Source: Bispira polyomma
Taxonomy: Eukaryota
Assembly (NCBI GenBank): GCA_965649765.1
Contig: OZ287750.1
Location: forward strand, 88,970,001-89,034,000
Length of the DNA: 64,000 bases
Direction of reading: 5' to 3'
The translations under genes and the position numbers were made by a program. The number at the start of each line of letters is the position of its first letter. The stretch's first letter is position 1. The notes below the pieces were generated by a model. The model was given only the letters and a program-made list of their open reading frames with translations, was not told the origin of the DNA and did not search any database. This document shows positions 44,190 to 58,858 of this stretch, piece by piece.

Positions 44190-45442
44190 CCTTTTTAAGG
44201 TCATCTTAATTTTGTACATGTCTTTTTAAAGTTACCTTAACTTAATGTGAATTTTCGTATTCTGTTTCGTAGGTGTCCTTCAACTGCATTTAAGGTGCCT
44301 TTAACTTGTGGCAGGCCCTTGCCTGGTTTTGTTTGAGGTGACCTCAAACTGAGGAGTACCTACACTACATCCTACGTGACTACAAGCTAAAACTATTCTA
44401 TGTACACTGAGTATGAAATGTAAATATGTATATGATTACCAAACCAATTGTAGCCATATGTTATGTTTATTTCTGTTGTAGGTGAGTATGGAAAGCCCTG
44501 GCCACCAAACCTGCTGCTTCGGGAGTCTTAACCAGGTACCTCTAATCTTCTGAGAGCATGAAAGCCATACTCTGATGTACGTAACCCTAGTTTCCTTATA
44601 AGGTCGGATAGGATCTTTCTTACCTGATAGGCTGTGACTACGGTAGTAAGGTGGTTAGTTTTAAATTGGAACAGGGGGGGGGGGCCCTGTCTGAAGAAGA
44701 GGTGGGTGGGGTGATTCTTCTAAGAGCCTAGACAGGACATAAGAGGGAGCCTGGAAGTGATGGAAGCTGCACTACCTAGACCTGCTCTGAAACCTGCATA
44801 TTTTTGGGCCATTTTGTGAGGAGATGAGCCCCTAGGCCCCCCAAATGACATCCCTGGGGGTTGGAAATCTGGATGGCTTGAACTGGGAAGCTTTAGTTGG
44901 GAACAGTGTAGCTAGCCTAAAGAACCTGAAGAATCCTAACAGTATGATGCCTTATAAACCTCAGCCCCTGGGAAGTCTGTAATCTGTTAGATGAGTTCTG
45001 TCAATTTATTAATAGAAAGTACCCGTTTTATGTTGTATCTGAGGGGGCATTTAAGCATGAGTGTGATATTTTTATGTGGGAACATCTGTGTAGGGAAGCC
45101 GTATATCTGGAATGAGTGCTTAAGGACTGTCATGTACCCCTGTATGGTCTGTGCCTTAAACCCTTGCTGAGCTAAATACTCTAGAAACAATAGTACCGAC
45201 TGTAAGTCAGGAGGTTGATCTCCAAGTGTGACAGAAACGTTGTATATAGCCTGAATTTGGAATGGTAAGCTGTAGAACTTCTTGGCCTGAAGCCCGTTTC
45301 AACCCTGCCTTTGACATCTCTAAGTAGGTCCCTTGCAACTGGGTTACCTGCAATAATAAAATTGAATAATTAGGAAACAACCTTTCGGGATCAATGTGAA
45401 ACCATTGACAAATCTTCAGTTACTGAACTTCAGCTTTTTGAG

Positions 45443-45698
45443 TTTGAATTTAAATTTGGATATTTAACGTCCACTCTAGTACCTTTTAGTAGGTTATATT
45501 GGGACGGGTAGTTGGAAATGCTGGAGGAAACACTGCATACAGTCGGTCAAGGTTCTGCACTGAAACCATCGGCCCACAGTAAGGAACTGCCATCTTTCCC
45601 ACATAGGCATCGACGGGATTCGAACTCACACTGCCCAGAGGTGAGAGACCAGTGATTGTGAAGCGCAATGCTTGCTAACCACTAGGCCACCGCGGCCC
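45443..45698 (-). mobile_element. tRNA-derived SINE family A, full length, 12-bp TSD
   Basis: A and B boxes. Flanked by cagctttttgag at 45431-45442 and 45699-45710. Confidence 0.93.
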
Positions 45699-46207
45699 CA
45701 GCTTTTTGAGAGTTACAATAGTGGCCCCAACGCGAGAGTATATCTGCATATGTGTTATCAACACCACGTACATGTTTCCCGAAAATTTCTAAGTTATAAG
45801 CGGCTTGTATGAGCCATAATGTTCTTGCGCATGCGTTAATAAATGGATCTCTACCTTTGAACTTATTTAGGATGTGCACTACTGCCATATTATCGCAATG
45901 CATGTAAATTCTACTATTGGCTCATTTGGGTGACTATAACCTAAATGCCACTAAGATATTAAACATTTCAAATGGACTATGGTGAGATTGTTTTTATATG
46001 TTTGGGGAATTTCCACTGTGTATACTTGGTTATCCCAATATGCCCCCAAACTTTGTAAGGACGCGTCCACATATACCTTGTGGGCAGGAGAATTAACTTT
46101 GTATATGGCTGTCACCCTGTTGTATTGTTATAGGAAAACGCAAAACCAATTGACATCTTTCTGAAATGTGTCAGTCAATGTAGTAGTGAAGTGAGGGGGA
46201 GTGCCCC

Positions 46208-47105
46208 TTAATAATAATAATAATAAAAACATTCATATAACGCAAAATTGATAAAAATCCTCTAATGCGCTGAATTCCAAAAAGGGATTTTCCAGTATCA
46301 AGGCAAAGGTTGTTACCAAGTGAGCGCCAACCAAGAAGTACCTAAGGTGGGGGATATGCCAGTCTAAACAAGTGAGTCTTGAGCTGGCTTCAAAAACCTG
46401 ATAGTGTCTGCTGGGATCTGACATTTTGTGGCAACCTGTTTCATTCTGCCGGTGCCGCGACAGCAAAGCTGCACCTTCCAATTTTTCGTTCAGGGCGAAG
46501 TGAAACAGTCTATTTCCACGTGTGAGGCTGCTGGACTTGATTAAGGAATATAGGTAGGGAGGTTGGGAATAGTTAAAAATCTTGAAGACAAGCAGGTTGT
46601 ACTTGAAAAGGATGCGCTGTTCAATGAGAAGCCAGTGGAGTTTTTAAAGGTAAGGGGTGACATGACTGAATCTGTCAAGCCTGTAAACAATGCCTGTAAG
46701 TTTGGCAATATTAGCCTTTCTGACCCCATATAGTAAAGAGTTGCCGTAGTCAAAGCGACTACTGAACATAACATTTGCCACCAGAACTGCAATATCAGCA
46801 CTAAGAAATTTGTTGCAAGTCTCGTAGATGATGGTAACAGGCATGGCAAATCTTGGCAAAATAGTTGTTAAAGGAGTTGTCGGAGTCAAAGACGACACCC
46901 AGGTTTTTTACCTCCGCTGATGGAGTGATATTGTTTTGGAGGAATGAAATAGGGAATTTTGGTGTAAATGACTTTGTGGTCGGTGTGTTACCTATAATAA
47001 TAAACTCTGTTTTATCTGGGTTGAGTTTTAATTTTGCACAATCCATCCACTCCTGGACTGATTTAAAAAAGTCAGTGAGCTCAGCAATACCTGAGTCAAA
47101 GCTCC
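46208..47105 (-). mobile_element. 5'-truncated L2-clade LINE inserted in pol of YR element 2
   Basis: KLKLNPDKTEFIIIG, VKNLGVVFDS, SSRFDYGNSLLYG, SHVTPYL and a (TTA)n tail. Confidence 0.88.
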
Positions 47106-49042
47106 TGGAGGTTGATCGACCTTGTCCTGGTTAATGGGTAGACCGAGTTCTATTATTAGATATTTTAGGGACAGGAAGGCATTGTTAGCCTTACCTGGAA
47201 GCGCAGTACACCGAGACAATCATCTAAATACGAGCATATCCAGTGCCCCCTAGTATGCATGAGAAACGTGATACAATCCATGGCCATCTGGCAGGCGCAT
47301 GCGCTCAAAGCTAAACTGAAGAGGATAATTACGTTAACGTAATAATGACCTTTCCAATTTAAACCTAAGACTGTATAATCTTGGGGGTCACTGCTAAGGT
47401 TTCTATAGGCCTTTTTAAAATCTATTTTAATAGTAGGGCCTCTGAGCCAAGCAGGGCTATTTTGTCTACCATATTGTCAATGGTAGGGTATTTTAACTTG
47501 GTATGGCAATGTTAACACTGTTGCCCTTTGGACAAGATAAATCTACAATAATCTGTCTAGTCCCATCCAACTAAGGTCGGGTCATCATTGGAGAAACCTG
47601 TCACTTGGGGAAGGGGCTTTCGCCTAAGGGCCCTATTATGGCCTTGTACCCAATCTCAGTGTTTAATTAATTTTTCACATGTTCTGGAAATTTAACAGCT
47701 GACACGTGGTTTTTCACCTTTGGGTTATATTGAAAGTTCTCATAGTTGGGTGATGGGGGAAGCCATATTCAAGACATTGGCACACTATGTTGAAATGATA
47801 ATCTTGTAAATAGTTGTCCCACGCTTTAATATTAAGCTGTGAAGGGACAGGGACTCTAGCCCCTTTATAGTTTGGGATTTGTTGAGCCTCTGTGAGGGCG
47901 TGAGCTTTTGTGATCCACTTAACCATGTCAGTTTCACTGACCCTCTAAGCCACTCCCTTAAGTTGCCTTCCGTAAGTGAAGTATTGACTGTGCAGTCTCT
48001 TTTAATTACCAGCTGGTTGTAAAGGCTATTGTTTTCCCTTAATTGATTAAAGTCTATGCAATGGGACCTTACTCTAAACTGGCCTTGTTGTAAGGCTGTG
48101 CTTATACAACACGACTGGCATGTGTGACAGTCTGAATAGCTATCCCCTAACTCGCTATGAATTGACATTAAGCTATCGTCGTAACTAAAGCCTCTTGAAG
48201 TAGCCATAGTGGCTGTGTTTGTACTAGCAAAGGCTGAGCTTTGCCCTAAGTAAATCTCGTCGGGTTCTATAGTAAAACTTGTTAACCCAAAATTTTGAAA
48301 ATTTTGGTGTGTTTTGCTTTACCTGTGGGGGTAAATTTGATGACCATACAATGTTCGTGGGACCATGACACGGCTACCTTAACCCTTTGGTCCCCCTGTC
48401 TATAATGTCCCGACTAAACAAGCTTATTTGTACTTGTACCTTGCAATTCCTCGCGTGACGTGCCCTTATATAGTTGGCCAAATCTGACCTGAGAAGGTCC
48501 ATAGCAGGCAGTCCGTGAGACGTTTGTAGCCATTCAGTACCAATCTTGTCCGACCTCCGTGAGCTGAGAGAAGAGGTGATAGCACCGAGTCACGTTTCTC
48601 ATCCTGGCGAAGCATCCGTTTCTCTAAGTCATCAAATCTGTCCATAATGGTATCCAGTTTGGCTGCTACATCCGAGTTGCTTACCCTCCTCCAGGCCTCC
48701 TCAACTGAGAGGCGGCTCCACAGCCGCACTCAACCATGGCACTCATTGCCGCATCGGTGGCAGTCAGTGGAGCAGTGGAGAGAGAGGTATGATGAAGAAG
48801 AGAATACTAGAGTTCCCCGTCAAAATATATTCATTTGCCTTATTCACCTTTATACCAAATATTCACCTTTATAGAGAATACCAGAGGATTCAACAAAGTA
48901 CTAACAAGGTAGTAAGAAGGTAGGTAGGAACAGGGTAATAACAACTTATACACACCCATAAGGTGAAAACAACACCACAACAAATGTACTAAACAGTCCT
49001 CCACCCCATTCCCTTCAAAAGGGAATCCACTAACACCATTCT

Positions 49043-49763
49043 CTATTTCAATTCCCCTGCCAATCTTAAAAATGCCTCCGCATTAAGACAAGTGGTCCGT
49101 ATCAAAATCTAATTTTGGCCAATCTCTCCCCAACAGAGTAAATGTCACATGGAGTATTCTTATCAGTGTCCACAGCGCGGTTAGGTTGATACAGGGTGTC
49201 TGATTCAAGAAGAATTTGTTTCAATGACACTTCCTGGAACACTTGATCGTCCTTATGCGTGTTTCCATACAATAATTTCGGTGAAGCACCAAAGTACATT
49301 GCGGGAAACTTTGCTAGCCAATTCTTACAAATCTGTTTTCCCCCTGTGAAACAATGCAGATAAATGGGATGTGCTGATGACAAATTTTCAGACAAAATCT
49401 GAAGGCAATCGTTGTAAGCCTCACTACGGCACGCTCTATCCCGGCAATGGATGACCACAGGCAAACGACGCTTGTTTGCTATAAATAACCTTTCTTTCAA
49501 CAAGTCCTTCTGACTTTTCCTGTTATGATTCTCACTAGAGTAATCCAACCCAACTTCTCCAATAGCTACACCAGATGAAAACCGACTTGTTGCATTAACA
49601 GCATTCAAAGCTTCTTGACTGTACTTGTTGCACGTTTTCGGATGTACTCTGAAATTCTGGAAAACACGTGAACTGTTCCCCACTGGCTGTTTAACAGCTT
49701 GTTAATCAGATGGAAACTTTTCCGATCAAGCCAATCTGATACATGAGCATAACTATCAATCAT
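49043..49763 (-). pseudogene. TatD-family metal-dependent nuclease domain in Gypsy ORF3
   Basis: MIDSYAH (HxH motif, one change), F.VHPK, VAIGEVGLDY, PVVIHCR, IYLHCFTG, ILLESD and C-terminal TTCLNAEAFL. Two frameshifts. Confidence 0.92.
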
Positions 49764-50900
49764 CTCCCCATGTGAAGATGAACCAAGCGTTGATGCGGAA
49801 GGGTCACTAGCCAATCTCATAATCCCCACAGCATTCATAATAGCAATAACCATGTGCCAATGAGTAAGACTTCCCGCGCAATTTGGTGGTGAAATGGTAA
49901 TCCTACATCTGCGTTGTTCTCATTCCAAGGTGTGATGAACATTGTGGTTTCCTGTGACGGGTATGCACTTTGATTTTGACAATATTTCAATAATCCGTCT
50001 ATTCCTTCTACATTCAAATGTCCAGACAACTTCAATAGATAGTTTTAAATTAACTTCATGTCCAAGCATTCTCTAGCAAAGAATGCTGGCAAATGAGCAT
50101 TTTCTGCATGTATTTGCATCTTCTTCATTACTAATGTGCACCCCTTCACGATGCATTTTTTTCTGGGAGATAAGTTTCTTGCTACAGTAGGAATCACTAC
50201 ACCCTGTGCTTGTGGAAACAGTATTCTTGCCCTCTTCCCTGGTGGTTGCCTTTCCATATCAACAGGCAAATATGGATCCTCTTTTCTGTAACCTGACTCC
50301 TACTGTCCTAACTTATCCACATAACACGCATATCTTCGCTCGTTGTCTGCACACTCCCTCTGGTGAATCACCGATGCAGCCTACACCCTTGGATCGTCCC
50401 ATTCTTATTCCTGTTCAAAAGCCACACTATCATTAGGAGTACCTGTTCTGTCTAAGGTCACTGTCAAACGCTGTTGTTTCTGTTCTACTGCACCTAAATC
50501 CTCACCCGAACGTCCTGTGGAGATCCTTGGGGTCGCAAGTATGGGAGAAATTATACTGTCTGTAGTTGAGCTACTACTCTGCACACAACTAGTCTGTACG
50601 ACACCAGTGGACACAAAGGTCATCAAATGAGAAGAAGATACCACTGGCGCGAGAGTTGTAGTAGGTGAAACTATAGACTGTCTCGGAGTGGAAGTGTACT
50701 CAAAAGCAGGCGGGTTCCTCACCTCAAAGGGTGACCCTACAGCAGCACTGACAGCTGCGAACTCGGGAAGGACATAACCATATTCAGGTCGATTCACCCC
50801 AAAAGGTGAATCAACTTAAGTAACTCCTAACTCCTGTCATTGAAGACGTAGGCATAAAAACCTCGCTAGGCATAGTTGGTACAGCCATAACTTTGGTCAT
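49764..50900 (-). pseudogene. N-terminal part of Gypsy ORF3: S/T/P-rich region and a C2H2-like motif
   Basis: Minus ORFs 50405-50797 (S/T/P/V rich), 50045-50269 (KKCIVKGC-x9-H-x4-HLP) and 49835-50035 lead into TatD with no intron-like gaps. Confidence 0.6.
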
Positions 50901-51094
50901 CACCCCAGAAGGTGATGCCATCCAAAATGTAGGCAAAGCAGACACTAGAGCTGGAGCAGCAACAGGTATAAACGGTATTATTAATTAACCATCACCCAAA
51001 CCAGGCTGATTAGCACTAAATTTTTAGAGCTTAGATAAAAAATTAAATAATTCAACCAAAGATTGAATTAATTATGCAAACAATTTAACTTAAT

Positions 51095-52300
51095 TAACTA
51101 CAAGTGCACCATGCTTATTCTGTGTGTTGAGTCTATCATGATGCACTACCAATTCAGATTTTCGATACATAATAGGTGAACGTACCTTAGTCACTAAATT
51201 TTGACCTATTCACACATTTTGAAGTTTTGAACTTTGACCTATTTTGGAACTGGAGTTTATCTGATACACCAAATCACCCACACAATACACTGTTTGTAAC
51301 AATTTGATGTCATAGTCTCTCTTTTGTCGTAAAAGTCTGGTCTTTAGATTGTCTCTAGCAAAAGTATGCACACTTTGTAACTTTTGCTGTAACTGTTGCA
51401 CATATTCAGCTGGATTTTGCTCTCTAAGTTTCTGATCTGTTACCCCTAACATGAGATCTACCGGTTGTGTAGTTTCCCCACCTAGCATCATCATGTTAGC
51501 TGAATAATCTGTATGTCTATTCTGGGTAGCCCTAATGGCACCTGCAAGTAAATGCAAATCCTAGTCCCACACTTTTTGATTATCTTCAATGTAACACATC
51601 ATTCTTTGCAAAAGCGTTTTATTATATCTCTCAACTTGTCCATTAGAACTAGGTCTATACGGAGTAGTCCTAGTCTTGGTGATTTGTAATAGTTTACAAA
51701 CTTGTTGGAACAGATTTCCCTCAAAGTTACGTCCCTGATCAGTATGAACCTGCAATGGGCAACCGAATCTAGCAATAAAATTATCTACAATTGTCTTAGA
51801 AACAGTTTTGGAAGTTTAATCCGGAACAGGGAAGCATTGAAGCAACATTGTAAACTGATCTACTATCATCAGAATGTAAGCATTACCTTGATCACTTCGA
51901 ATAAAGGGTCCCAACATGTCAATGTGAACACACTCCATCGGCGTTCCTGCATGAAACAATTCCAAGGAAGCCTTAGACAGTTTTTTATTCATGTTACATT
52001 GTCTACAAGTCCTAATAAAATTCCGACAGTCATTCTTCATTTTGTACCATACAAAATTTTGTTTCAATTTGTCCAATGTCTTGTCCAATGACTTGGAATG
52101 TTATGTGATAACTAAAGTACTGGTCCTTTTAAGGTCTGAAGTACCATTAGCACATATCTCACATTATCAAATGGTTCATCCGGTACCCATTTGTAATACA
52201 AAATTCCATCCAAGACAGTGAGCAAAGAACGATTCAACCAATAGGACTTAGTTGCTGCACTACTGATTTGTATATGATAATCTAATGGGTCCTTGTAAGA
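51095..52300 (-). pseudogene. Gypsy integrase
   Basis: CRQC (HHCC half), VHIDMLGP, IVDQFT, VHTDQGRNFE, TTPYRPSSNGQVERYN, VGDLV...SSKL...VVHHDRL. Confidence 0.93.
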
Positions 52301-52488
52301 TTTTAACCAATCAAAAACTGGCTGAAGGTCATTGTTATTTTCTTGAGCAGATCTATTCTCATCCTTAGACAATCCTGGAAACCAGGGTTCTATCTCTAAT
52401 CTACTAATAGTTAAAGGGTCAGTTTTCATAGCTAATGGAACTACGTCATCTACTTCATCATTAAACCATCTCCATTGATTCTGTGCTC

Positions 52489-53720
52489 TCACACAATAAG
52501 AACAACCACCACAAGGCAATTAACTACTGCCCGAATCACAAGGCAATTTACACCTGCCCATTGAATAATAGTCATATCAAATTGAACAAGGTCCTGAAGC
52601 CATCTGGCTAATTGACCCTCTATATATTTAAATCGCATCAGCCATGCCAGACTGCTATGGTCAATCCAAACTACAATTTTTCGACCTAACAAAAAAATCT
52701 GTACTGATTGGTAAATTTCACTGTAGCCAAAAGTTCTTACGAGTAGTACAATATTTCTTTTGCTCAGGAGTTAAAATGTAACTTCCCTAACTGATCACTT
52801 TTTCCTGTCCATCCTGTATTTGAAGCAATTCTGCTCCAATAGCTTCATAAGAAGCATCAGTGTCTAACACAAACAAATCATGGTCATTGGGATATGTCAA
52901 TAAAAGTGCCGATGTCAATTGCTCCTTTAACTTGTGAAATGCCTTACTATGCTCTTCCAGCCAACGGAAATTCATGGTATTGACCTTACTACCTGTCAGT
53001 TGATATAAACAACGCGCTGTTTCGGCGAAATCTTTTAAGTGTTCACGATGGTAGTTCACAAACCCTAAAAACTGTTTAACTTCCTTCTGGTTAACTGGCG
53101 TTGGCCATTTTTGGATTTTTTCTATGCTTTCAGGATTCACTGATATTCCTTTACTATTTACTATTTTCCCCAAGAACTTAACCTGTTTTTGGAACAAAAT
53201 GCATTTCCTGGGCTTTAACCGGAGGTCAAAACCTATTTGCACATGCTCTAATAAGCCAAACCAGGTTATAAAGGCGGTTTTGTGCCGGCCTTTCTCATCA
53301 ATCACTACCTGCCAATATTCGGAGGCCATATCAAGTGTACTAAAGAAAATGCTCCCGTTGAGAATAGTAAGACAATGATGAATGTTAGGTAAGCCAAACG
53401 AGACTTTCACAGTTAATTGGTTAAGCTTTCTGCAGTTGATTGCATATCTAACTGAACCATCCCTTTTCCGTATTAACACTGGTGGCGATGCCCACTCAGA
53501 AGAAGACTCTTGTATAACTCCCGACTTAATCATGTTTTGAACACAAGTCTCCTCTTCCCGCTCAAAATTGATTGGAACTCGTCTCATCTGTTGCCTAACT
53601 GGTTTTGAGTCACCGGTATCAATTTGATGTAATATTTCCTGAAAACACCCTAGGTCATTATCATGTTTGGCAAACACATCAGAATAATCACCAAGTAAAT
53701 GTTTCAATTTATACTGTTGC
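52489..53720 (-). pseudogene. Gypsy reverse transcriptase and RNase H (RT lacks YxDD)
   Basis: SSEWASPPVLIRKRDGSVRY, FSTLDMASEYWQ, KTAF, LKPRKC..VKFLG, FLGFVNYHR, LDTDASYEAIGAEL, IDHSSLAWL..EGQLARW. Confidence 0.93.
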
Positions 53721-54199
53721 TCCTGGTTCAAATTAGAACATGAGTTTTTGTATAAATCCACTAGCTGTGGTGGAAGTTTTGATTCATCTAGCATTATTTG
53801 TCTTACTTGTAGAACTTTGCTAGTAGTCAAAGTCAGGTTGTCATTGTCAATGTCACATGAAGTGTCTTCAAATATACAATCTACTTCACAAGCAACTCCC
53901 CAAAGGAGTCCCTTTTTCAAATATACATACTTATCTAAGTCATTAACTATTTGTACAACAACTGTAGATGATCCATTAATCAAGCAATATGGTGCAAGCG
54001 CTTTTTGCTGAAAATTAGTATAAGCCGGTTGCAACACAAAAGTACTACCAGGACTATCCAAGTCAGTAGTTACACCCACAATTGTAACTGAACATGGTTA
54101 CAAAACAACTTTCTTTGCTAAACATACATGACTAACTTTAAACTGCTCATTCAATTCATTCTTAATCAAACTTATCGGTAACTTTGTATCACTAACACA

Positions 54200-54577
54200 A
54201 GTTTTTTTCCAAGCCTATTGTTACCTTGTGTTTCAACAAGAAATCCAATCCAAGCAACAAATCATCATTAATATCAGCGACATATAAATCATGCACATAA
54301 TTTGTTGTCCAATTCGCAACGGCACTTTTTCAATTATATGAGCTGACATATATTAATTTTTTCCAGCATATTTCAAACTCACCTCTTTACTCAGTGTTGG
54401 TAACCCTTCTTTTATCTTTATGTACAAACTTTCACTTAATACTGTTACCTGTGCGGCACTGTCTACTACTGCATGAAACTGATATCTACCTATTTTAATA
54501 GGTATCATTACATTATTTACAGATTTACCAGTTGTGTATTGCACTTCCTTAATACGCTGTTCTGATTGATGGTTCAT
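54200..54577 (-). pseudogene. Gypsy aspartic protease
   Basis: AVVDSAAQVTVLS active site, with DDLLLGLDFL downstream. Confidence 0.88.
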
Positions 54578-54588
54578 TTTTGGATCAT

Positions 54589-56450
54589 TTACTCATGACT
54601 GGGTGAATTCCTGACCCTCGAATTGGACCCGGTCCCTTTTAAATCATCAAATGTTACCCTTGGACTATTTGACGATCTATCTACACGTGCTGGACTTTTA
54701 TAACCCTCACTTCCTCTCCTCACAGGAGAAACATACCTGTCAAAGCGATTGTTATTTGTGGAAGTGGATGACCCTGACCTAATTCTTCTATCATCACCAT
54801 CACTGGAATGCGGACTTCTACCTGATCTATAATCATAACTAGATTCTCGTCCATACCTGTTTGGTAAGTACCTATCTCTAGGAGAAAAGCATCCAGATCC
54901 AGATCCATAACGCCTTGGTGACTGTCTACAATCTCTATGCAAATGACAAATTTGCCCACAACCAAAACACTGTAACAATCTATCTGGTGAATTTCTTGGT
55001 GACGGACAATTCACTTTGATGTGCCCAGTATTCCCACAATTGAAGCATTTACCAACAGAACTTCTACTTGGTGATGGGCAGTTTGCTTTCAAGTGTCCTT
55101 TGTTCCCACAGGTATAACATCTATAAGTTCTCTGACTGTAATTGGTTTAGCAACTTCAGTGCGGGATTGTCATTTGATTTCTGCGGGTTTCTATACAAGT
55201 TCCTAACCATCAGATCTTCTGTATCACTAGGATTCATTGAAACCTGTTGCAAGTCCTTGACCACCTTCTCCATAAATGGCCTGTTTATGCTGTACGGAAT
55301 CTTTCACTCGGATCACGGCTTTTCTTAAGGTCTGCCGTCGAGTATGCAATATCTGGAATGCAGCTTTCTTGTCCTTGCATCCCTTCGAAAAGTATTCAAC
55401 AGCAAACAGTTCTGTATTAACCATTGCGGTCTCAGGATAACCACGCAACATAAGCTTCTGTACTCTGTCTGAGAAATCTTCTAGATCTTCATCTAAATTC
55501 TGTCTAATGCTAAGTAGCTGATTCCGTGCAGTTCCTAGCAGAACTTTCTCTTTCAACTTAGCTGCAAACCTGTTTTTGATTTCTGTGTAGTTGGTTCGTG
55601 TTGTCTCGGGGAAATCTCTGAAAAATTACATTGCCTTACCGCGCAATGAAACAAACAATCGCTGGATCTTTTCTTTTTCTGTCCAATTGTACTGAATAGC
55701 TAACAGTTCAAATTGCTGTATAAAAGCTTTCCAGGCTACTCCCTCAAAGCTGGATACCTTCGGCCATGGCATTCCTACCTCCCGTCTTGGTGGAAGTGGT
55801 ACGTATGCACTTGCTGTCGCCACTGGTGTTGGTGTACTATCTGTCATTGAAGTAGGCGGCAGTAAAGAAGTAGCGGACATTGCTGTACCTGCGGTAACGG
55901 TTACACTACTTGACAATAAAACCAGTGATACTTACATAACAGTGGACATTATGGCGCTTGTGGTCAATGGTACAGGTGTTACAGATGGCGGTGCAACACT
56001 TGCAGATATAGCAAATACATTTGTCATTGGAGCACTATAAGATGTAGACTCATCTAATTGTAGACTGTCTGGCGCTGTAGGCGATACTAACATTTTCCAT
56101 GTCGTACTTTCTGACATCCCAGTTACTTCAGGTGGTGGTACAGTCACGGTAGTGAAAAACACTGCTACATCACCTGGCATTCTGTGACTCATCAATGATT
56201 AATCACTGAAGAATCACGGTATCCATGATATACTGATCCCAAACCTCCCATTTCATCAGGTGTTTTAACAATTGTCTCAGTATTTCTGTTCATTTCATTC
56301 GCATTTCTATCCATTGACGCCATACGGTGTCTGGATTCATCAACACTAGCGAGCATCATGTTAGTGGCTTGCTTCATTAAAGTGATAACCTCAGCAATAT
56401 CACCCTCTTTTCTATCGAAGGCTAACTGTTGTTTAAATGTTAACAACCTT
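54589..56450 (-). pseudogene. Gypsy gag
   Basis: Coiled coil, S/T/P-rich stretch, capsid-like WKAFIQQFELLA..NW..LRGKA, three CCHC knuckles (CYTCGNKGHLKANC, CFNCGNTGHIKVNC, CFGCGQICHLHRDC) and an RS-rich tail. Confidence 0.9.
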
Positions 56451-58858
56451 GAGTTACTATTGTGTCCTTGCCATCCAGAGGAATATTCGGCAAAAGAAAG
56501 AATTGTCTCTCTGTTAAGTCACCTCCATTTGCATTCATTGCCTCTATAATAATTGCAGCTCTTTCTGGACCAATACCTCTGATTTAAATTAACTGATCCC
56601 ATAACTCAACTTCCATTTCATTCTGACTACCACTTTGCAATACATTCAAATCATCCTCGGATCTGCGGCTTTCCATATTTACATACAACACTTAACACAA
56701 TAATTTTACATTACCATCTCCACCTCCTTGCAACAAAATCACCCATGAAGCGATTTACTTTATTACGTACAAGCATGGGTAAACTTATGCAAAGGTAATG
56801 CTGGGTAGTAAGTAATTTTTTTTTTCCAAGCAACATGCAACATTTAAGAATACAGTATATGTCAATGCAATATATTCAATATCGATATAATCAACTTCTC
56901 CACACAATGTATTTTCCTATATGCAATTGTTTCTATTGTTTCATAACCTTCTCTTCCAGTTACACTTCGTTTCCAATGACATAAAGTAAAATATTATTTT
57001 TTCTTTTTTCAAATTTTAAGTTCAATCAAATTGTCAATTATTGATTCCAATTTCAATTCAATTTCCAGTAAAATTGTTTTAGATTAATTAAATGATCATT
57101 TTCTTTTGCTTCCAAAATTTCACTGAATTATTTTACTTTCCAATAATTCGGGCAGTACTGGTCAACATATATAGCATACATTGCAACAAAATAATATACA
57201 ATCACGGTCAATGAATCACATAATACGCGGTGGCAGTACACATAAAATAACAATTCACATTAACACTATGGTACCGAACCGGGGATCTAATTGTTTGTTT
57301 TTTTTAAAAGTTGTATCCCTCCAAAGTACAACAAAATAGTATGTTAGAAATGCATTTCGGTAGTGCTTCAGTAATTTACTGAAGCAATATATATAAATTA
57401 TAAATAAGAGATGATGGATTTTTCCAAAATAATGTTTTTTTTTCAGAATGGCTAACTCACGTGTATTCGATGTGAGTGGACAATTTCACAGTTGGTTGAA
57501 TTAATTATCAAAGTTTTCATGTAATTTTTCACTGACAGCTTTACCAAAGTATGTAATCACATTCTATATTATACTAGCTAACTTTTAATGGCAATACAGT
57601 ACTTTCTGGATGGTTATTATGGTGACATTTATGAATAATAAATCATTTATTTATTTTCAAAAGTTACTCACCCAAAGGACATTGGACAAAGGCTATTTGC
57701 CTTGTCTGCATTTTCAGATTGTACACATTTTCGAAAAAATAGTTTCTTCTAAATCTTATTTTTTCTTCTGGGAATACCCCACTTCTGGTACCAATGTTGT
57801 ATTCTCATACAACGAATACATTAATATACAGGTTCAATGCACAGACACATAAATATATACTGTTTAACAAATAAATTACTGTTGTAATGATTTCAAAGCT
57901 CAGACTCTGTCTTCATATGCCACGGCTGCGTTTTTGTTAAATTATTCTTCATATTTACAAATATAAATATCTATGTGCATGGAAAATTACCATCTTTGTC
58001 TTACGTGAGACGTCACAGCTGACATCATAATTTTTTATGTTACTCACAGCTAATTACTGTCACTGCATATGAAATAAGCATGACCTATCAGTCACTAAAA
58101 TACAGAGCCTTACGGTAATTGTTGCTAGTAAATTTGTTTGTTTGTGTTAGCCAATAAGAGACTAGAAAAATAGCAAATTTTGCCGCCCTTTCTAAGGAAA
58201 GGTCATTCTCAGCCTAAAAGTTTAATAGGCAACAAGTAAAAAATATTAAAATTCTAGATATTTAAGTAAAATAAAAAAGTGTAAATAAAAAAACCATCCC
58301 AAACACCATCACATATTTCCTTATCAAACCTACAAGAAATATATAATAATATGACCTTTAGAATGTATGACCTTGCTATATGAATATGACCTTGAAAATG
58401 TATATGACCCTATTCAAATCAGGCTGAAATTTTAGGGACTGCGTCATAATTTACATTTTATTAACCTCAGCGTCTTTCACCTTCAAACAATAAATAACTG
58501 GTTACTATTTAGTTTACTTGACAACCTGAGATTTATAATCGTGCTTCCTTAGAGAACAGCAAATGTTTTCAGTCTCTTGAAATATTGATAGCCTGACCAT
58601 GAAGGTCAGATTTGGGGAATGTTGACTCTCTGGGGGTCATAAGTGATGAATATGTAGTGTAATAGGAAAGTCGGATGCAGTTTGGGATACTTTATTTACA
58701 AATTACTTTGCTTCAGTATATATATCTGTACAGAAAAAATTCAAATTTAAAATTTTTAAAATGCCATACATAAAGACTAAAAATATATATATACCGATAT
58801 ACACAAAATAAGGGGAGGGTGGTTTCGGTAAGTTTTTAGCTGTTATTTGGTCAGCTTC

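Follow-up and report, generated by a model that had tools for sequence, protein, structure and literature searches.

The window, that is, the whole 64,000-nt stretch of Bispira polyomma DNA that was analysed, carries on its minus strand a decayed Gypsy element whose third open reading frame (ORF3), placed in the env position, ends in a TatD domain, recognized by Pfam TatD_DNase with E 3.5e-34 and 118.8 bits, the cut-off being 27. The element starts with the 3′ part (~135 nt) of its 5′ LTR, which ends in ATACAACA (57795–57929, minus strand) and was recognized by blastn to the LTRs of the sister copies L033, L039 and L047; the initial ~80 nt of this LTR are unrecognizable. The LTR is followed by an 18-nt primer-binding site (PBS; 57776–57793, minus strand) complementary to the 3′ end plus CCA of the host tRNA-Leu(TAA). 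The PBS pattern occurs at 12 places in the source genome (G000), and all three of the loci scanned were tRNA-Leu(taa). A tandem cluster of tRNA-Leu(TAA), tRNA-Ser and tRNA-Ala genes was also observed at G000:C3:12385513-12415801.

Downstream of the PBS, on the same strand, Pfam and translation revealed a decayed gag with the capsid region and zinc knuckles (54590–56620, the 5′ limit being approximate), in which zf-CCHC was matched at E 2e-11 and Retrotrans_gag at E 5e-4, below the cut-off. The reading frames place a candidate gag/pol –1 frameshift site, TTTAAAA, at 54634–54645 (minus strand), where most of the sisters have TTTAAAC (nine other copies viewed), and –1 frameshifting may be expected at this position. 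The decayed pol (51127–54640, minus strand) preserves the order protease, RT and RNase H followed by integrase, as determined by Pfam (RVT_1 and RT_RNaseH_2) and tblastn, and the C-terminal tail of the integrase was deleted at 51127/51126, by a loss of ~330 nt relative to the sisters.

The original prediction had described a decayed ORF located 3′ of the integrase on the same strand, and this ORF was indeed found, extending on the minus strand from 50975 to ~49048. Based on the reading frames and on sister comparison, it corresponds to an ORF3 remnant (49048–50975) from which the start codon and the N-terminal motif were deleted. The S/T/P-rich stretch and the cysteine/histidine motif reported for this region are both present, the latter as C-x4-C-x9-H-x4-H-L-P at 50158, and an 11-copy alignment defined here a domain named MID (49850–50160, minus strand), composed of the zinc finger C-x4-C..H-x4-H-L-P and a helical domain ending P-P-N..H-W. 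The TatD domain (49048–49760, minus strand) was assigned to group II (HxH) and related to TATDN2 by means of Pfam, the fold matches of a natural relative and the tree. The TatD motifs previously listed were all recovered, DSYAH at 49757, GEVGLDY at 49560, VIHCR at 49455, LHCF at 49359 and LESD at 49209; the domain itself is broken and not complete as had been stated, with ~120 nt missing at 49723/49722, inside TatD, relative to three sisters. The same comparison revealed the absence of ~37 nt near 49919 and of ~320 nt at 50976/50975, the start of ORF3 being lost with the latter, and the window copy has no intact HxH. The claim that ORF3 decayed to a similar degree as gag-pol agrees with the DNA identities to the sisters, mostly 85–88% for the former and mostly 84–92% for the latter.

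A candidate PPT-TG junction proposed at ~49016–48993 is not the LTR boundary and proved to be part of the 3′ untranslated internal region (48680–49047, minus strand, by sister comparison), whose sequence is common to the sisters and is cut off here at ~48680. The true PPT and the start of the 3′ LTR are located ~930 nt past TatD in L033 and ~1090 nt in L039, and both are absent from the window copy, in which sister homology stops at ~48680 and a DIRS-like element begins. Because PPT and 3′ LTR were lost, the placement of TatD inside the LTRs is not demonstrable on the window copy and was demonstrated on its sisters; the window copy is a broken member of a TatD-bearing Gypsy branch. The DIRS-like element found in place of the Gypsy 3′ end (44700–48680, minus strand) is also decayed, with RT (RVT_1, E 8e-4), RNase H and tyrosine-recombinase-like stretches recognized by eye, and it is interrupted by a LINE fragment at ~46230–47130.

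The source genome contains at least 150 intronless TatD matches (151 per search), and this count is a lower bound because 150 candidates were scored. Twenty loci were chosen first, 10 close to the window copy and 10 with long open frames, and 60 further loci were taken by rank, 59 from the best 73 matches and one a few rows lower. Among the rank-chosen loci, gag, RT or integrase was found upstream on the same strand in 57 of the 60, 37 of them having integrase at an upstream distance of no more than 5 kb, and only L110, L113 and L125 had none of the three upstream. The possibility raised with the original prediction, that TatD might not be linked to Gypsy elsewhere, is contradicted by this gag/pol linkage. 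The TatD loci were sorted into 11 families. Flanking direct repeats were present in 30 of 81 loci, many of the stretches being too short for both LTRs, and identical 4-bp TSDs accompanied 17 of the 24 pairs having a TG start and a PPT. The window's own family is represented by L033, a copy of 10.8 kb that has TG..CA ends together with PBS, PPT and the TSD CTAT/CTAT, and whose LTR-to-LTR alignment reaches only 73% and whose 3′ LTR has 207 bp. Gag, pol and ORF3 were also found within one LTR pair in L045 (98.4%), L067 (97.6%), L073 and L063; thus, in the intact copies TatD lies inside the LTRs and not outside them.

Concerning the features that define Ty3/Gypsy (Metaviridae), the pol order protease-RT-RNase H-integrase was recovered by Pfam, including in L242, an element from another organism. 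An LTR pair with TG start, PBS, PPT and 4–6-bp TSD was observed on relatives, including L033, the window copy being devoid of a 3′ LTR, and YxDD was present as YIDD or YLDD in 6 of 11 RT stretches and not shown in the other five. Pol also carries RNase H motifs, all three of them in 6 of the 9 copies checked, and TatD is not an RNase H substitute because these motifs persist. As additional observations, the LTRs of several families (L055, L059, L063, L067 and others) end in TA and not in CA, and the TSDs are strongly biased to ATAT/ATAC. L059, L074 and L077 constitute an F1 subfamily without gag and most of RT that kept integrase and ORF3 within LTR pairs with TSDs, and L259 (G000:C10:18490604-18492971) is an F4 copy in which TatD is inverted relative to integrase.

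The ORF3 open frames reach 650–855 aa and, from a basic/disordered start, lead to a helical motif of ~55 aa, then to MID, and lastly to TatD at the C-terminus behind a variable linker. As read from its sequence, the ORF3 protein is a three-part fusion of a short N-terminal motif, a zinc-finger/helical domain and TatD. The N-terminal motif was CUE-like in one of five copies, with an E of 0.004 that is below the cut-off, and its CUE identity is a lead only. No Pfam domain other than TatD was above the cut-off on ORF3, and a DEDDy exonuclease was not found by the same means. The predicted model of a natural MID-TatD relative had a pLDDT of 89.7, with MID mostly at 78–96, and its best Foldseek matches were the TIM barrels of YcfH, TatD and TATDN3 (E 3e-13 and up). 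MID folded alone (11 sequences) reached a pLDDT of 51, and a wide structure search gave a best Z of 3.8; other structure searches returned unnamed clusters at 0.90–0.91 from the ESM Atlas and one TatD-like giant-virus match from BFVD. The active-site HxH, E, H, H and E-x-D are invariant or near-invariant in a 40-sequence alignment, and each of the catalytic motifs was retained in 63–75 of 81 copies. The ORF3 TatD is a predicted metal-dependent nuclease of group II type.

A simple hydropathy scan of 15 ORF3s or parts of them detected no env-like hydrophobic segments, such as a signal peptide or a transmembrane anchor would give, the best 19-residue values being 1.1–1.8, and the three highest peaks (1.67–1.82) fall within the MID or TatD domains. 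Between three and seven basic residues precede the finger in all 13 proteins where the pattern was found. Regarding expression signals, a polypyrimidine-YAG was located directly before an ATG, just past the pol stop, in families F0, F1, F2, F6 and F9, and in F5 the acceptor was placed 33 nt before an ATG; the exact acceptor, with YAG adjoining ATG, was not seen in F3, F4, F8 and F10. No GT..AG leader-to-ORF3 joint was present among the 15 joints viewed out of 33, which came from three runs of unrecorded kind that consisted of contigs across all 30 bins and are uninformative about expression. We infer splicing from the acceptor motifs, which are present in some of the families, and it is likely that ORF3 is made as a separate protein from a spliced RNA.

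Beyond this genome, the first proteins obtained with a profile search over 1.84 billion representatives and with word searches were TATDN2-like and MID-bearing ones, and a word search with the whole ORF3 gave only two relatives because low-complexity words crowded the search. The MID profile matched 57 of 158 collected proteins. Most of the 30 MID-TatD protein clusters looked up were unnamed, and the named proteins came from Mya arenaria (one cluster of 13, whose contigs differ in length), Diadema setosum (two) and a Sedimenticola MAG (two clusters), two more having a generic TatD label. In Mya and Diadema, the ORF3 protein is present again, as recognized in protein records. Moreover, a contig of the Sedimenticola MAG (L242, JBEVXV010000729.1) contains an intact gag-pol-ORF3(TatD) Gypsy element with 96.8% terminal repeats, which is probably animal host DNA within the MAG bin. 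The C-terminus of its pol carries a PHD finger. Collection scans added 80 metagenome and 14 viral loci that match the TatD part only, at 23–33% identity.

The comparison between the TatD and element trees suggested in the original prediction resulted in the same topology for TatD and integrase in 16 copies from 9 families. In both trees 12 of the 13 branches were starred, and the TatD branches were ~3× longer than those of integrase for the same copies. The dN/dS analysis suggested along with it was based on variants counted against the commonest codon of each column, those present in at least two copies being considered shared. In six families, shared TatD variants comprised 135 synonymous and 131 nonsynonymous changes vs 272 and 535 among singletons (Fisher p 1e-6), and the same test gave p 0.003 for MID and only p 0.06 for the integrase control. 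The shared dN/dS was 0.58–0.70 in the linkers vs 0.09–0.35 in TatD, and a dN/dS of 0.11 was observed at dS 0.93 between subfamilies of the window's family. The values of the two-copy families, 0.46 and 0.63, do not fall below those of singletons (0.41–0.66), a baseline that lies under 1 in part because transition bias is not considered in the counting. TatD is under purifying selection in the element lineage, and no sign of positive selection on TatD was seen in these counts. An element-encoded, selected accessory nuclease is, very probably, what ORF3 supplies.

A particular arrangement was observed in a 10-locus pol-less derivative of F0 (L091, L101, L105, L112, L118, L119, L120, L123, L127 and L129), mostly 6.2–6.7 kb long and exemplified by G000:C4:54563791-54573790, in which a TTTAAAC-TAG slippery site connects gag with a TatD lying in the –1 frame. 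LTR pairs flanked by TSDs occur in six of the 10 copies, and only two of the 10 keep this frame open throughout. The derivative is probably a recombinant with the 3′ end of a sister subfamily because its gag equals that of F0 at every commonest codon tested and its TatD differs (dS 0.17). The presence of TatD in the –1 frame of Gag, in copies with TSD-flanked LTR pairs, fits particle packaging better than nuclear action, and would be expected if TatD were packaged in the particle and assisted reverse transcription, with RNA primers, displaced strands or the ends of the cDNA being trimmed by it. Such a function is improbable, however, considering that the shared TatD variants of the derivative are as unconstrained as its singletons (dN/dS 0.53 vs 0.48, p 1.0), that so few of its frames remain open, that autonomous copies retain the RNase H motifs and a separate ORF3, and that human TATDN2 barely acts on plain RNA:DNA hybrids (PMC10711561).

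In order to place the TatD-bearing elements among other Gypsy families, 20 additional integrase loci were taken, and in the integrase tree of 29 rows these elements constituted one clade (100/99), L242 of another organism included. TatD was found in none of the 16 integrase loci outside this clade, in the stretch taken (~6 kb downstream). The suggestion that TatD may define a Gypsy lineage is therefore borne out, since it marks one integrase clade and co-diverges with integrase. Many of the families outside the clade have zinc-finger ORF3s, and a profile of the H-L-P-W finger built on 18 MID-TatD proteins scored 25 and 21 bits on ORF3s of the sister clade, compared with a maximum of 6 over 1000 shuffles. 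Because the 16 outside loci have no TatD and the finger is present in the sister clade without TatD, the zinc-finger ORF3 is probably the older part, to which TatD was fused later, and the simplest history would be a single fusion of a TATDN2-derived domain onto a pre-existing zinc-finger ORF3. As to the outside families themselves (L243–L258), the ORF3s of these TatD-less elements contain coiled coils and disordered stretches as well as C2H2-like fingers. One of the families, which includes L243 and L244, is young, and its pol and ORF3 are long open frames.

The origin of the nuclease domain was approached with a 45-row mixture-model tree, in which the bootstrap was not fully settled. The element TatDs formed one clade (100/98), and TATDN2 monophyly excluding the elements received 36/68. 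Of the tree proposed earlier, with TATDN1, TATDN2, TATDN3 and bacterial proteins, the TATDN2-like and bacterial proteins were sampled here, and element TatDs and TATDN2-like proteins grouped together against bacterial TatD (99/99). The host TATDN2 is a separate spliced gene with at least seven TatD-coding exons (G000:C4:31114985-31133632, minus strand), whose exons are 45–71% identical to gastropod TATDN2, and the element TatDs have just 26–52% identity to it per exon. A TATDN2 origin of the element TatD is highly plausible. The view of TatD as a captured accessory gene was supported, with the modifications that its relative is TATDN2, a described R-loop RNase, and not a generic DNase, and that the protein is a fusion of three parts. 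In the same tree, the proteins P0147 and P0080, with a MID-like sequence plus TatD, were nested inside TATDN2 (with P0068, 84/92) and may represent a second TATDN2 capture. The idea that TATDN2 is itself a domesticated element gene, which came from an unrooted tree, was set aside, as the rooted tree gives one element clade; the occurrence of Glomeromycota fungi among the TATDN2-like proteins is also against it.

Two other readings of the TatD domain should be weighed against these relationships. The domain could be carried along neutrally, or could have landed in the element as a processed pseudogene of the host TATDN2, the latter having been contemplated in the original prediction, and the broken state of the window copy and of most copies seen is in keeping with such a reading. 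It is scarcely credible, given that 11 diverged families carry TatD congruently with integrase and under purifying selection, that the identity to the host exons is so low and that the domain is intact in an element of another organism. On the other hand, TatD could be a DNA 3′–5′ exonuclease/AP endonuclease repairing the gapped integration intermediate or protecting cDNA. TATDN1, TATDN3 and the TatD paralogues of E. coli have such activities (PMC10085689), and the best structural matches of the predicted model were bacterial YcfH-type proteins, a ranking that is silent on TATDN2 because TATDN1 and TATDN3 were the only human paralogues shown. The nearest sampled family by sequence is TATDN2, however, whose human member barely acts on DNA and has very weak AP activity (PMC10711561), which leaves DNA repair with a low probability.

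Human TATDN2 was characterized as a Mg-dependent ribonuclease with 3′ exo and endo activity, which degrades the RNA of R-loops and whose binding needs its disordered N-terminus (PMC10711561), and in medaka the R-loops of primordial germ cells are limited by tatdn2 (PMC12709183). The reading favoured here, which on balance is reasonably probable as a whole, is that of a Gypsy clade with an inherited, selected and spliced zinc-finger-TATDN2-like ORF3 that would clear R-loop RNA at the element's own DNA. According to this proposal, a host TATDN2 message would have been captured once, in ancient times, onto a zinc-finger ORF3, and the protein would be produced from an env-like spliced subgenomic RNA, as the acceptor motifs suggest. 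It would act in the nucleus, as the basic stretch before the finger and the lack of env-like hydrophobic segments would indicate, and its substrate, by analogy with human TATDN2, would be the RNA in R-loops at the DNA copies of the element, whose removal would allow the production of full-length element RNA to continue. The suggestion of a nuclear action on R-loops comes from the RNase H motifs in pol, the separate ORF, the nucleic-acid-type finger and the basic stretch. By itself, the clearance of R-loops or nascent RNA as the main role is a tentative assignment, and the substrate of ORF3 may differ from that of TATDN2 because the element TatDs are long-branched and evolve ~3× faster than integrase. 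The resolution of R-loops in germ cells by the donor family makes two questions testable, namely whether retrotransposon transcription is limited by R-loops and whether the elements counteract this limit.

The same anatomy would also suit an anti-silencing RNase, in which the finger would target element chromatin or RNA and TatD would trim small-RNA guides or nascent silencing-scaffold transcripts. The fast evolution of TatD vs the slow evolution of integrase fits a host conflict, and rotifer elements took another 3′–5′ exonuclease into ORF3, for which a silencing role was entertained (PMC5408684). Nevertheless, the shared variants are under purifying selection and positive selection was not seen, and no tie between TATDN2 and small RNAs was found in the portions of the literature consulted; hence, this function is considered unlikely.

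The element TatDs resemble TATDN2 in the HxH, in the long disordered N-terminus followed by a C-terminal TatD and in their joint clade against bacterial TatD (PMC10085689, PMC10711561), and their glutamates match E593 and E705 of human TATDN2 (numbering checked on a 761-aa TATDN2-like protein). Unlike TATDN2, the element genes are intronless, multicopy, located inside LTRs, provided with MID and long-branched. In the literature searched, Repbase, subscription journals and supplements aside, no description of TatD in an LTR retrotransposon was found, and a squid paper matching TatD and LTR terms names TATDN2 only in a figure legend. The closest likeness is provided by the Juno and Vesta elements of bdelloid rotifers (Rodriguez, Kenefick and Arkhipova 2017, PMC5408684), which likewise have an enzymatic, non-env ORF3 in the env slot, in their case a 3′–5′ exonuclease with intact catalytic residues whose role is also putative. 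That enzyme has a DEDDy fold, whereas the one described here is a TIM-barrel TatD fused to a zinc-finger/helical domain. The Juno/Vesta ORF3s showed no significant departure from neutrality, and TatD is unmentioned in the accessible text of that paper (PMC5408684); the TatD elements, unlike Juno/Vesta, form a single integrase clade of old age, with TatD and integrase trees in agreement and with purifying selection.

A second, unrelated nuclease fold can be included in the short list of env-slot enzymes of LTR retrotransposons, here together with evidence of selection and co-divergence, neither of which was reported in the accessible text of the rotifer paper (PMC5408684). The route by which the accessory gene was acquired can also be traced, from the zinc-finger ORF3 of sister clades to the fusion with a host enzyme. 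Moreover, multicopy invertebrate TatD annotations, such as the Mya cluster of 13, and TatD hydrolases of bacterial MAGs can be retrotransposon genes. A broader picture, more doubtful than the assignment of the R-loop role and at most a possible one, would be that of an ancient, animal-wide Gypsy superclade that docks via its zinc-finger ORF3, one branch of which was armed with a TATDN2 R-loop RNase for germ-line transcription, with at least two captures, and to which many invertebrate or MAG genes annotated as 'TATDN2-like' or 'TatD hydrolase' would belong.

Env-bearing Gypsy elements, such as the errantiviruses (PMC13524379), resemble the TatD elements in having, between integrase and PPT, a third ORF whose start is preceded by a splice-acceptor-like site; they differ in that the TatD elements have a nuclease and no env-like hydrophobic segments, and the main text of PMC13524379 has no mention of TatD or a nuclease. 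Among molluscs, a named Gypsy clade is the C-clade, with MolGy1-16 (PMC6238403). Troyka and Kuafuorterviruses (PMC12440569, PMC11673190) are similarly LTR elements widespread in marine invertebrates, with CG..CG ends, 3-bp TSDs and xADD, in contrast to the TatD elements, which present TG..CA or TG..TA ends, 4-bp TSDs and YIDD or YLDD.
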